Virus record (IMG/VR): IMGVR_UViG_3300042937_000802 | Span: 27,462 to 91,461 of that record | Direction: 5' to 3' (one strand) | Origin: a virus | DNA: 64,000 bases | In this document: positions 56,995 to 64,000 of the stretch, piece by piece | How positions within the stretch are numbered: the first letter of the stretch is position 1 | Layout: each line of letters opens with the position of its first letter | Translations under genes and position numbers: made by a program | Notes under the pieces: generated by a model | Told to the model about the DNA's origin: nothing | Seen by the model: the letters and a program-made list of their open reading frames with translations, nothing else | Database searches by the model: none

Positions 56995-59900
56995 ATGTCT
57001 AAGATAACAGGTGGCGTGCCAATTTCAGGATTTATATCACCCTTAGATTCGGGTGATTTTTATGCTGTTACAAATCCAATATATGGTTTGGGTGGTTTGA
57101 GAAGTGTTGTTGATGTAACTGAACGAAATAATATTACAAATGAACGTAGAGAGCTTGGAATGCTTGTATATGTTCAGTCTGATCAAAAATTCTATACTTT
57201 AATTGGAAGTACAGCTAATTCTTCGTGGCAAGAATTTTCTGGATCATCTGGCACAACAGGAAATACAGGAACAACAGGATCTACAGGAACAACAGGATCT
57301 ACTGGTACAACTGGTTCTACAGGTGCAACTGGATCTACTGGTCGTACTGGCGCAACTGGATCTACAGGTGCAACTGGATCTACTGGTCCTACTGGATCTA
57401 CTGGTCCTACTGGATCTACTGGTCCTACTGGATCTACTGGTCCTACTGGTACAACTGGATCTACTGGTCCTACTGGTCCTACTGGTAACACAGGTAACAC
57501 CGGACCTACCGGTAACACAGGACCTACAGGTAACACCGGACCTACTGGTAACACAGGTCGTACTGGTGCCACTGGTAACACAGGATTCACAGGTCCTTAT
57601 GGTTTAGTTGGCTATGATGGTCGTAGAGGTCCATTAGGGAATACAGGTGCATCAGGAGCAACTGGCTCTACTGGTCCTACTGGTAACACTGGTCCTACTG
57701 GTAACACTGGTCCTACTGGTAACACTGGTCCTACTGGTCCTACTGGTTCTACTGGTTCTACTGGTCCCACGGGTAACACTGGTCTTACTGGTAACACAGG
57801 TAACACTGGTCCTACTGGTAACACCGGTCCTACTGGTAACACGGGTAACACCGGACCTACCGGTAACACAGGTAACACCGGACCTACAGGTAACACAGGC
57901 CCTACTGGCAATACAGGTCGAACGGGTTCTACTGGTCCTACTGGTCCCACTGGTAACACAGGTCCTACTGGTAACACAGGTAATACAGGTCCTACCGGAA
58001 ACACAGGTCCTACTGGTAATACAGGTCCTACTGGAAATACTGGTAACACTGGTAATACTGGTCCTACTGGTAACACAGGTAACACAGGACCCACTGGCAA
58101 CACTGGTCCAACTGGCAACACTGGATCTACTGGTATCACTGGTAACACTGGTCCTACAGGCCCTACTGGTAACACAGGACCCACTGGTAACACAGGACCA
58201 ACAGGTAACACCGGACCTACCGGTAACACAGGACCTACTGGTGCCACTGGTAACACAGGTCGTACTGGTCCTTATGGTTTAGTTGGCTATGATGGTCGTA
58301 GAGGTCCATTAGGGAATACAGGTGCATCAGGAGCAACTGGCTCTACTGGTCCTACTGGTAACACTGGTAACACTGGTAACACCGGACCTACAGGTAACAC
58401 AGGTAATACTGGTCTCACAGGTCCTACTGGTAATACTGGTCTTACAGGTCCTACTGGTAACACTGGATCTACTGGTTCTACTGGTCCCACCGGTAATACA
58501 GGTCGAACAGGTCCTACCGGAAACACAGGTCCTACTGGTAACACTGGTCCGACTGGTCTTACTGGTCCTACTGGCAATACTGGTAACACCGGACCTACTG
58601 GTAACACAGGTCACACAGGACCCACTGGTAACACTGGATCTACTGGCCCCACTGGTAACACTGGTCCTACAGGCCCCACTGGTAATACTGGTCCTACTGG
58701 TAACACAGGACCTACTGGTAACACAGGACCTACTGGTAACACAGGACCTACTGGTAACACAGGTAACACTGGTCTCACAGGTCCTACTGGTCCTACAGGT
58801 TCTACCGGTCCTACAGGTTCTACTGGAGCTACAGGTCGTACTGGTGCAACTGGTAATACAGGATTCACTGGTCCTTATGGTTTAGTTGGTTATGATGGAC
58901 GCAGAGGTCCATTAGGGAATACAGGCGCATCAGGAGCAACTGGCTCTACTGGTTCTACTGGTAACACTGGTAACACTGGTCCTACTGGTTTAACTGGCAA
59001 CACAGGTCGAACTGGTGCCACTGGTAACACAGGTCCTACTGGTAACACAGGTAATACAGGTCCTACCGGAAACACAGGTCCTACTGGTAACACTGGTCCG
59101 ACTGGTCTTACTGGTCCTACTGGCAATACTGGTAACACCGGACCTACTGGTCTAACTGGCAACACTGGTTCTACTGGTAACACAGGTCCTACTGGTAACA
59201 CAGGTCCTACTGGTAACAGAGGTCCTACTGGTAACACAGGACCTACTGGTAACACAGGACCTACTGGTAACACCGGTCCTACTGGTAACACAGGTCGAAC
59301 AGGTGCCAGTGGTAACACTGGTCCTACTGGTAACACCGGACCTACTGGTAATACAGGTCCTACTGGAAATACTGGTAACACTGGTAATACTGGTCCTACT
59401 GGTAACACAGGTAACACAGGACCCACTGGCAACACTGGTCCTACTGGTCCTACTGGTAACACTGGTCCCACTGGTAATACAGGTCGAACTGGTGCTACTG
59501 GTGCCACTGGTAACACCGGTCCTACTGGTAACACAGGTCCTACTGGTGTCACTGGTAACACAGGATTTACTGGTCCTTATGGTTTAGTTGGTTATGATGG
59601 ACGCAGAGGTCCATTAGGAAATACAGGTTCTACTGGTCCTACTGGTAACACAGGTTCCACTGGTAACACTGGTTTAACAGGAAACACTGGTCCTACAGGT
59701 CCCACTGGTAACACCGGTCCTACTGGTAACACTGGGCCTACCGGTAACACTGGTCCCACTGGTAATACAGGTCGAACTGGTGCTACTGGTGCCACTGGTA
59801 ACACCGGTCCTACTGGTAACACAGGTCCTACTGGTAACACCGGACCCACAGGTAACACAGGACCTACTGGTAACACCGGACCTACAGGTAACACCGGTAC

Positions 59901-62900: not shown

Positions 62901-64000
62901 AGTCAATGGTTCGGATCTGGCTATTGCACTAGGTTTATATAGGTCTGGTACTAATTTATACACAGACGTATTATATTATCCAGGTTCAACTGGAACATCA
63001 GTTGATTCAAATCTAAGTACCGAAACATGGTGCATTGAAAATACTTGGTTTAATTATTCTGGACTAACAGGTGACGGAAAACCATATAGAGTAATACAAC
63101 AAGTAGGATATAAATTACAAAACTTAGAATCTGGAGCAGGGTTTACAGGTTTTAATGCAGATTATGAAAAATATGTAAGACAAGGTGTAGTCTACAAAAA
63201 TCAAATAACAGGTGCAGAAGGTTTAACTTTATATTGGTCTTCTTGGACACAGGATCAAGGAAGTGGTTCTGGTGGAACGGGCAATACAGGTTCAACTGGA
63301 ACAACAGGAGCAACTGGCCAAACAGGTAGAACTGGTGCCACTGGTTCTACTGGACCAACAGGTAACACTGGTGCTACCGGAAACACAGGTCCTACTGGTA
63401 ACACTGGTCCTACCGGTAATACTGGACCAACAGGTAACACTGGTGCTACTGGACGTACTGGTCCCACTGGTAACACAGGTCCTACTGGTAACACAGGTAA
63501 TACAGGTCCTACCGGAAACACAGGTCCTACTGGTAACACTGGTCCTACTGGTAACACTGGTTCCACTGGTAACACTGGTCCAACAGGTAATACAGGTCGC
63601 ACTGGTGCTACTGGTAATAGTGGATCAACTGGCCCTTATGGTTTAATTGGTTATGATGGACGCAGAGGTCCACTAGGAAATACTGGCGCAACAGGAAATA
63701 CTGGTGCTACTGGACGTACTGGTCCCACTGGTAACACAGGTCCTACTGGTAACACAGGTAATACAGGTCCTACCGGAAACACAGGTCCTACTGGTAACAC
63801 TGGTCCTACTGGTAACACTGGTGCTACTGGACGTACTGGTCCCACTGGTAACACAGGTCCTACTGGTAACACAGGTAACACTGGTCCTACTGGTAACACT
63901 GGTCCCACTGGTAACACTGGTCCAACAGGTAATACAGGTCGCACTGGTGCTACTGGTAATAGTGGATCAACTGGCCCTTATGGTTTAATTGGTTATGATG
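56995..64000 (+). CDS. Giant Gly-X-Thr collagen-like fibre protein (>2,335 aa, 3'-truncated; absent from ORF track)
   Basis: ATG at 56995 and no stop seen in this frame to the window end. N-domain [29 protein letters not shown]; collagen 57241-62424; globular knob-like domain 62425-63270; collagen resumes at 63271. Confidence 0.92.
57241..62424 (+). repeat. Coding 9-bp tandem repeat (GGN NNN ACN), 576 Gly-X-Y triplets
   Basis: [15 protein letters not shown] and GLT units; all landmark spacings are multiples of 9 nt. Confidence 0.92.
63271..64000 (+). repeat. Second Gly-X-Thr collagen repeat tract (runs off window)
   Basis: Same units and the same [12 protein letters not shown] cassette. Confidence 0.9.

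Follow-up and report, generated by a model that had tools for sequence, protein, structure and literature searches.

Does a short peptide that recurs at regular steps along a collagen-like phage fibre serve a function, or is it a mark left by duplication of the DNA around it? The question is raised by a 64-kb stretch of viral DNA (the window), the last 64 kb, positions 27,462 to 91,461, of the 91,461-bp IMG/VR record IMGVR_UViG_3300042937_000802, itself estimated to be 51% complete. A 3'-open reading frame in this window (P0001; 56995..63999, + strand), longer than 2335 amino acids (aa) and interrupted by the end of the record, encodes a giant collagen-like fibre along which copies of a peptide, here called the cassette, are distributed. 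Phage fibres of the collagen-like kind are generally regarded as spacers without features of their own. In the present case, a site of 15-20 residues is conserved, and in most lineages its copy-to-copy distance is conserved too, while the helix that carries it has been rewritten (as G-x-T, G-x-Q or GTT/GAP). Judged by sequence comparison, the cassette peptide is under purifying selection and the length of its module is constrained. As to its role, our confidence is about evenly divided on the reading that we favour, namely that the cassette acts, within the triple helix of a virion fibre that is predicted to be glycosylated, as a functional peptide site whose likeliest use is docking or self-association.

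The cassette and its fibre

The fibre product begins with an 82-aa N-terminal domain (56995..57240), which is modular and matches the PHROG annotations 'tail protein' and 'virion structural protein'. It continues with collagen tract 1 (aa 83-1810; 57241..62424), which comprises 576 G-X-Y triplets with zero interruptions, with a non-collagen middle domain, or knob, of 282 aa that contains a dockerin/EF-hand-like loop (62425..63270), and with collagen tract 2 (from aa 2093; 63271..63999), at least 81 triplets long and ended by the record. All these features, like the cassettes, lie on the + strand. The Pfam Collagen profile, PF01391, matches aa 83-482 with E=2e-63 and 210.5 bits against a cut-off of 27.2, and a 60-aa piece spanning a cassette, at 39.1 bits, is still above that cut-off. 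By this profile and by its triplets, the product is a member of the collagen triple-helix repeat family, and a trimer is predicted. Given the rise of 0.286 nm per residue of the collagen helix, tract 1 has a length of ~494 nm (~0.5 µm). Its X position is Asn in 216 triplets and Pro in 182, and the presence of Thr at Y in most triplets (526/576) makes it a BclA-like G-X-Thr repeat.

When the translation of 56995-63999 was searched with the pattern GPYGL[VI]GYD(GRRGPL), ten cassette starts were found, at the same bases as in a first-pass annotation of the window. Tract 1 holds eight copies, four with Val at the variable position (57592..57636, 58267..58311, 58870..58914 and 59572..59616) followed by four with Ile (60265..60309, 60904..60948, 61588..61632 and 62209..62253). 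Tract 2 holds a ninth (63631..63675) and a tenth (63973..63999), the latter ended after GPYGLIGYD by the end of the record. The spacings within tract 1 also agree with those first given: 75, 67, 78, 77, 71, 76 and 69 triplets, or 225, 201, 234, 231, 213, 228 and 207 aa, with a mean of 219.9 aa. The same is true of the lead-in to the first cassette (39 triplets in tract 1, 40 in tract 2) and of the Gly register, which is kept through the cassettes. The two cassettes of tract 2 lie 38 triplets apart, half the tract 1 period. The core pattern matched nine times in the fibre gene and nowhere else in the 91-kb record, and a reversed control had no match. The block that is conserved in the window is longer than the 15 residues first listed. 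The cassette had further been described as the only aromatic and charged run of the tract. It is indeed the only aromatic run and the only charged run, but it does not contain the only charged residues: with the cassettes and their GFT lead-in set aside, tract 1 lacks Tyr, Phe, Trp, Glu and Lys and has 28 single Arg residues (27 of them as GRT), two Asp and one His.

These numbers should be read in the light of how the record ends. An exact internal repeat of 126 nt (60166-60291 = 63874-63999) reaches the last base, and it is probably because of this repeat that the assembly stops inside the gene. The sister contigs L024 and L025 likewise end inside the fibre gene, as do all contigs with G-x-T filler. 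With a short-read-type assembly and a repeat at its end, the copy number and the exact spacings are provisional pending long reads. A repeat search on the tract returned 9-nt register families only and was uninformative.

Selection, duplication and the spacing lattice

Duplication has left clear traces in the gene. Exact repeats of 95-126 nt link the regions of cassettes 1 and 2 (which share an identical stretch of 102 nt), of cassettes 7 and 8 (119 nt) and of cassettes 5, 9 and 10. The V form is restricted to copies 1-4 and the I form to copies 5-10, and in L025 the residue is Gly in four of four copies. Together, the exact repeats and the clustering of V and I indicate that duplication or gene conversion is active at the level of the unit. 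The cassette could then be a neutral by-product, marking the edge of a unit of ~330 or 660 bp that was tandemly duplicated and homogenised by conversion, and persisting as the only part of the unit that cannot slip. Such a history would account for the exact repeats, for the V/I clustering and the uniform Gly of L025 as signs of concerted evolution, and for the exact duplicate of a whole 114-aa unit found in L302. We nevertheless consider this origin barely credible, for reasons that lie in the codons, in the comparison with relatives and in the lengths of old units.

Among the cassettes of the window, the proportion of synonymous differences (pS) is 0.21 and that of nonsynonymous differences (pN) 0.017. 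The nine full copies use five codon versions of the nine-codon core and seven over all 15 codons, and the exchange of Val and Ile is the only amino-acid change among them. Between the window and L025, the cassette gives a pS of 0.26 and a pN of 0.06, the N-terminal domain a pS of 0.22 and a pN of 0.10, and in an alignment of the two fibres the identity at X and Y positions peaks at the cassettes only. Across the family, the same peptide is spelled with different codons in nearly every copy: all eight copies differ in L003, and L041 has 14 versions; in L003, L041 and L053, the peptide stays invariant although differences at synonymous sites are near saturation. Codon differences between lineages also disfavour recent horizontal transfer of the DNA. 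The claim in the first-pass annotation that the peptide is conserved despite synonymous changes is thus well founded, pN being low relative to pS, the codon versions many and the filler rewritten.

The relatives used in these comparisons were found by looser G-Y/F-D-G-R-R-G patterns and by protein searches, the strict 14-codon cassette pattern having no match in IMG/VR outside this record. Scans of metagenomes and genomes with the core pattern gave, among the matches listed, mostly single chance matches in high-GC DNA; only L100, L103, L105, L127 and L170 were useful among them. The core G-[YF]-D-G-R-[RI]-G was recovered in at least about nine further lineages of the fibre family, full-length orthologues with G-x-Q filler included. 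The filler is G-[NPSG]-T in the window and L025, GTT/GAP in L302 and P0068, and G-x-Q in L003, L041/L036, L053/L014, L100, L103, L127 and L105. The motif common to the family reads G-x-T-G-x-[VY]-G-x-[VI]-G-[YF]-D-G-R-[RI]-G, with lineage-weighted frequencies of 0.90 for Thr, 0.70 for Val and 0.20 for Tyr at the next variable position, 0.69 for Val/Ile, 0.92 for Tyr (otherwise Phe), 1.0 for Asp, 1.0 for the first Arg and 0.90 for the second (otherwise Ile). We define the family of cassette-bearing giant fibres by at least two G-[YF]-D-G-R-[RI]-G cores in combination with a homologous middle domain. The window, L003, L041, L036 and P0068 have both, with the cores in the collagen tract; the sequences of L025 and L302 end before the middle domain.

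These fibres differ in nearly everything else. L025/L024, a close relative present in two samples, is 95-100% identical to the window in gp45, gp44, RegA, the GT2 glycosyltransferase and the protein P0013, and just 83-85% identical in P0014 and the fibre N-terminal domain. Its filler has moved from Asn/Pro to Ser/Gly/Pro/Asn, and its cassettes are spaced by 73, 65 and 73 triplets, the same long-short-long order as the 75, 67 and 78 of the window. L003 is a full-length orthologue of 2468 aa, with a 56%-identical N-terminal domain, a homologous middle domain, an extra C-terminal domain of ~390 aa and a G-x-Q tract with true interruptions; it carries G(S/A)VGP(V/A)G(F/Y)DGRRG eight times, at spacings of 110, 190, 217, 205, 203 and 225 aa. 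In the group of L041/L036 and L014/L053, the 3362-aa fibre of L041 has a different N-terminal domain, a homologous middle domain, G-x-Q filler and two extra globular inserts. It contains GNRG(T/N)TGSVGP(V/I)GYDGRRG 16-17 times, with spacings that alternate between 219-224 and 110-114 aa in pure collagen stretches. Among the metagenome pieces, spacings are 111 and 107 aa in L100, 237 in L103 and 215 in L127; L105 has one cassette. L302 and P0068 combine a window-like N-terminal domain with GTT/GAP filler and the cassette GPQGYDGRIGPTG; the spacing is 114 aa in L302, and 66 and 39 aa in P0068, a compact protein of 891 aa. That the motif is kept in lineages with 56%-identical or unrelated N-terminal domains and wholly different filler is difficult to reconcile with a duplication marker.

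Some observations on these relatives stand apart. The sample code of the L003 contig recurs in the name of a Lake Mendota bin, which hints at a freshwater origin of L003. The inserts of L041 (encoded on the - strand), each of ~165 aa and homologous to one another, are at aa ~360-520 and ~1050-1215 (GYHTGLVYQYDE...FYPTGFSG) and do not occur in the window protein. Downstream of the fibre gene, L003, L041 and L036 share a conserved trio encoding proteins of 603-636 aa (MFFGKNK...), 215 aa (MKKLLGTDTVGSYTF...) and ~659 aa. The L299 and L308 versions of the first protein include a collagen tract, and the window record ends before the trio.

Comparison of cassette spacing in homologues revealed two main classes. 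We pooled 46 intervals that span collagen only; since many of the units are orthologous, and hence not independent, the distribution is descriptive. Eighteen intervals measure 107-114 aa (mean 111.1, standard deviation 2.4) and 23 measure 190-237 aa (mean 217.2, standard deviation 11.8), 1.95 times the short class. Three fall at 132-135 aa, two are short (39 and 66 aa, both from P0068) and none lies between 136 and 189 aa. With the helical rise used above, the two classes correspond to steps of ~32 nm and ~62-63 nm.

The constancy of the lattice is best seen in L041 and L053. Eight consecutive units of L041 measure 113, 352, 224, 114, 222, 113, 219 and 110 aa, the matching units of L053 110, 351, 222, 114, 222, 114, 222 and 111 aa. 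Lengths thus differ by at most 3 aa in units whose identity outside Gly is 0.49-0.68. Old paralogous units within L041 stand at the same level of non-Gly identity (0.50-0.68) as these orthologues, and paralogues at 0.5-0.6 likewise keep their length within 3 aa. Unit length that is held while the content turns over points to selection on length, as it would otherwise be unexpected for slippage-prone repeats of 9 and 18 nt. On these sequence grounds we regard the module length as constrained, and the codon, pS/pN and unit-length data together as largely refuting the neutral reading. The suggestion in the first-pass annotation of a selected periodic patch gains support in turn: the peptide is under purifying selection, the spacing does not vary freely in most relatives, and neither free spacing from recent duplication nor a lack of purifying selection was found in the relatives checked.

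Near the middle of one double unit of L041 lies a decayed half-cassette, GIRGNTGSQGVQG, which is compatible with an origin from modules of ~37 triplets, some of which have since lost their cassette. No half-site was found at the middle of the double units of the window, where the GRT positions are irregular.

Candidate roles of the cassette

The docking reading can be formulated as follows. The motif would belong to a ~37-triplet repeat module of old origin, whose length is held while slippage and conversion turn over its filler. Cassettes would accordingly lie on a lattice of ~111 aa (~32 nm), in single or double steps; in the window, tract 1 would take double steps, with single ones at the start of each tract and throughout tract 2. 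In a homotrimer, each cassette would display a stripe of hydrophobic residues and, next along the helix, a ring of three Asp and six Arg residues, and would offer sequence-specific contacts at regular axial intervals, like the binding motifs embedded in animal collagens. The partner could be a like cassette on a neighbouring fibre, in which case fibres would bundle in register or staggered, or become cross-linked; it could also be a protein or a glycan. Conservation of both the site and the axial step suggests a partner that is itself periodic, or else that cassettes of neighbouring fibres bind one another. The composition of the cassette is consistent with such a role. According to the host-guest data of Persikov et al. 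from 2000, Tyr or another aromatic residue at X, and Asp, Tyr, Val or Leu at Y, reportedly have low triple-helix propensity. Strict retention of such residues would point to a function other than helix stability.

It is tempting to carry self-association further. If cassettes were self-complementary, fibres half a micrometre long, on one virion or on adjacent ones, might zip together at ~32-nm steps into a banded rope or mesh. We regard this as an unlikely, if attractive, extension of the docking reading. Were it true, it would represent a viral counterpart, free of hydroxyproline (Hyp), of the D-staggered assembly of animal collagens, evolved independently and with its module length tuned by selection.

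Could the cassette instead serve the folding of the fibre? Chains of ~1700 residues might be nucleated or locked by inter-chain salt bridges between Asp at Y and Arg at X' of the D-G-R sequence, aided by hydrophobic contacts. G-X-T chains would thus zip quickly and without slipping, and even spacing would minimise the longest stretch devoid of a staple. The problem that such staples would solve is real, as 576 uninterrupted and near-homogeneous triplets invite mis-registration. In each unit the cassette is the sole unique sequence, the regular spacing fits a limit on the longest gap, and each tract runs for one step (39-40 triplets) before its first cassette. Many sequences could fulfil this task, however, yet [YF]-D-G-R-R is invariant across lineages, and the triplets GYD, GPY and GPL are destabilising by propensity data. 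Moreover, the strongly stabilising orientation in collagen is Lys or Arg at Y followed by Asp or Glu at X' (K/R-G-D/E), and the cassette has the opposite, D(Y)-G-R(X'). Identical cassettes alone cannot stop slippage by a whole period, and in P0069 and P0070 a second tract of ~110 triplets does without any cassette. K-G-D staples, considered as a separate stabiliser, number five in L041 and zero elsewhere, too few to argue from. On balance we hold a folding or registration staple to be rather unlikely, although it deserves more weight than the other alternatives.

The low helix propensities and the regular spacing could also be taken to mean that the cassettes, imino-poor and unstable, act as flexible joints between stiff rod segments of ~32 or 63 nm. 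The core does lack Pro. Against this stands the fact that a hinge requires no invariant sequence, and that the G-x-Q lineages have true G-X-Y interruptions elsewhere in their tracts, such as GIQSPQG and GSGTQG. We judge flexible joints to be very improbable.

The role of glycans needed to be reconsidered. The cassette had been proposed to form an unglycosylated patch. This does not hold in general, as the same core is found in G-x-Q fibres, in which Thr at Y is very rare. In those fibres it is the cassette that carries the one conserved Y-position Thr, at position -7 (90% of lineage-weighted copies). With the cassette supplying the conserved Thr, a Thr-free gap cannot be the conserved property. 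One may then turn the argument around and suppose that a GT2 glycosyltransferase encoded upstream docks on YDGRR and glycosylates the Thr three triplets upstream (and, in G-X-T fibres, Thr residues of the filler as well), so that the fibre would bear glycans at regular intervals. Besides the Thr at -7, almost the sole one at Y in G-x-Q fibres, this idea draws support from the large sugar-synthesis island in the window and from the one or two GT2 genes that precede the fibre module at every locus with a readable upstream flank (those of L041 and L036 are too short). L003, which mostly lacks the Thr at -7 and has GNNGAVGPVGFDGRRG, does not conform to it, and GT2 genes are equally present at loci with cassette-free fibres. 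Recognition by the glycosyltransferase thus appears improbable to us. Tyrosine cross-linking, another role suggested at the outset, is unlikely to be general, because six of the eight copies in L003 have Phe, which makes a dityrosine site improbable across the family.

Returning to the docking reading, several points weigh against it. The location of the fibre in the virion, its trimeric state and its glycosylation are predictions from sequence. Several pairs of cassettes are embedded in exact repeats of at least 100 nt, and the regularity is therefore partly a product of recent duplication or conversion, and the copy number may be wrong, as G-x-T contigs all break in the gene. The pooled spacings are non-independent, many units being orthologous. 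Nor is the spacing universal, as the 39 and 66 aa of P0068 and the three intervals of 132-135 aa attest, and within the window it spreads widely, from 67 to 78 triplets. P0069 and P0070 share the middle and C-terminal domains and have, as mentioned, a long second tract without the cassette. Finally, a search by co-occurrence among the GT2, P0013 and P0014 genes identified no partner of the cassette. The first-pass annotation had named the products starting at 55411 (P0013) and 55812 (P0014) for this part. Homologues of the former sit beside cassette-free fibres (L299, L303-L309), and the latter is replaced in L014/L041. P0013 and GT2, equally present at those cassette-free loci, were rejected as cassette-specific partners; P0014, found beside cassette-bearing fibres only but not beside all of them, was rejected as a general partner.

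Fibre module and known collagens

The phage is T4-like, as indicated by Pfam matches to the Gp20 portal, Gp23 capsid protein, T4-type terminase, UvsW, gp45, gp44/gp62 and RegA; the nearest DNA matches (~72-75% identity) are to regA/gp44 regions of cyanomyoviruses. The gene order gp45-gp44-gp62-regA-GT2-P0013-fibre genes is conserved throughout the clade, including the cassette-free L299 and L303-L309. Two tandem GT2 glycosyltransferase genes (53026-54258 and 54260-55378, + strand) are kept upstream of the fibre module clade-wide. A low-GC island (34000-46900; 24-30% G+C) encodes a DegT/EryC1 aminotransferase, a NeuB-cupin fusion and a thiamine diphosphate-dependent enzyme. This island and the two GT2 genes suggest that the phage produces an unusual glycan of its own, perhaps for the G-X-Thr fibre.

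Next follow P0013 (55411..55812, +), of 133 aa and found clade-wide (phrog_1084), and P0014 (55812..56993, +), a 393-aa protein with a short collagen-like stretch, encoded directly upstream of the fibre gene. Among the loci compared, P0014 was found only in L025 (83% identity), L302 and L003 (36%), and an unrelated gene takes its place in L014/L041. P0013 is 100% identical in L025, next to fibre genes at 83-85%, and its family has at least 53 members at 51% identity or more. Its AlphaFold2 model (pLDDT 82) is an immunoglobulin (Ig)-like beta-sandwich. The best phage matches are tail-tip/baseplate chains of T5 and DT57C (template-modelling scores 0.65-0.68, root-mean-square deviations 3.5-4.1 Å). 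With these chains, 7qg9_L and 8hqz_Q/T, which we take to be the p132 collar protein, P0013 shares a size of ~135 aa, the fold and a location beside fibre genes; it differs by a sequence identity of just 11-15%, and antibodies and PD-1 score similarly. The model suggests a fibre-docking adaptor, but the Ig fold is very common. Together, this T5-collar-like neighbour and the PHROG tail and virion matches of the N-terminal domain place the giant gene in the fibre module, we infer. A T4 late-promoter-like octamer, TATAAATA, lies at 56925..56932 (+ strand), 63 nt upstream of the ATG. The octamer is not enriched in the window (9 observed versus 10 expected), which makes the copy at 56925 weak evidence.

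The 82-aa N-terminal domain is probably the end that attaches to the virion. It recurs, 51-60% identical, at the head of P0002-P0011, in front of NNTWG-type repeats, beta-rich domains or short collagen segments. This distribution implies a swappable head piece, through which one virion docking site would accept many alternative fibres. P0012, a metagenomic protein of 343 aa, matches the second half of the domain and the first collagen triplets with 100% identity after an unrelated N-terminal part of 165 aa, evidence of recombination inside the domain. In the comparison of the window with L025/L298 over 53026-57240, identity falls in a sharp step from 95-100% (replication genes, GT2, P0013) to 83-85% (P0014, N-terminal domain), a sign that the fibre genes have been exchanged as a module or evolve fast. 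The AlphaFold2 model of the N-terminal domain is of low confidence (pLDDT 64). Comparison with Pfam and with PDB sequences gave no significant match for it or for the middle domain. For the middle domain there was also no match in the phage collection, nor in IMG/VR by peptide patterns; its homologues are those of L003, L041, L036 and P0068-P0070. Its loop resembles dockerins weakly (Pfam E=0.05; PDB dockerins E=0.018), and D153, D157 and D164 are invariant in six homologues.

How does this fibre relate to known collagens? The D-period of fibrillar collagen measures 234 residues, or 67 nm. Like the cassettes, it involves axial clusters of charged and hydrophobic residues, and the double step of the window (201-234 aa, mean 220) is of similar size. 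However, there is no homology, there are no propeptides and the base period of the family is ~111 aa, so the numerical likeness may be due to chance.

Closer parallels exist among the collagen-like proteins of prokaryotes and their phages that contain PF01391, such as those of Escherichia coli prophages (PMC3368898) and the Bcl proteins of Bacillus (PMC8968730). These proteins resemble the window fibre in combining an N-terminal domain, a G-X-Y tract and a globular domain, in their place in a phage fibre module, and in having little Pro, no Hyp, and Thr or Gln at Y. Collagen tracts of Bcl proteins range from 27 to 1158 residues (PMC8968730); the 1728 uninterrupted residues of tract 1 exceed this range, and the lattice-spaced cassette is a further difference. 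The exosporium glycoproteins of the BclA type (Bacillus, C. difficile) share G-P-T/G-x-T repeats and the proximity of glycosyltransferase and sugar-synthesis genes. The O-glycosylated Thr residues of BclA-type repeats are regarded as a support for the helix (PMC8968730). They differ in their non-collagen domains, for which no sequence relation was found, and BclA has no periodic aromatic and charged cassette; for the window fibre glycosylation is predicted only. No BclA-type N-terminal targeting domain was found in it by Pfam and PDB matches, and the window ends before its C-terminus, where BclA has a C1q/TNF-like domain.

The cassette itself is best compared with the ligand motifs embedded in animal collagens: GFOGER (integrins), GVMGFO (SPARC/VWF/DDR2) and the fibronectin site, all read in the triple-helical state (PMC8968730). 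Like the cassette, they are islands of 6-12 hydrophobic or aromatic and charged residues, conserved within a degenerate helix. The cassette differs in its sequence, G-[YF]-D-G-R-R, in the lack of Hyp and in its phage context. Since it has Asp at Y and Arg at X', in place of the Glu at X' by which GFOGER coordinates the metal ion of its partner, the likeness to the integrin site is one of analogy only. Furthermore, the cassette is repeated 8-16 times at regular steps, while the animal motifs occur once or a few times.

In the literature searched, we found no account of a conserved, embedded motif that recurs on a length lattice within collagens of phages or bacteria. The conservation of site and step suggests that, in a widespread aquatic clade of T4-like phages, the triple helix has an unrecognised function of its own. 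Triple-helical peptides with and without the cassette provide a defined and easily synthesised target for questions of folding, bundling, glycosylation and binding, and the cassette offers a natural Hyp-free motif for the design of collagen materials with sites at fixed axial intervals. From its sequence, then, the phage fibre appears as one more member of the known family of collagen-like repeats; what sets it apart is the conserved, spaced cassette.

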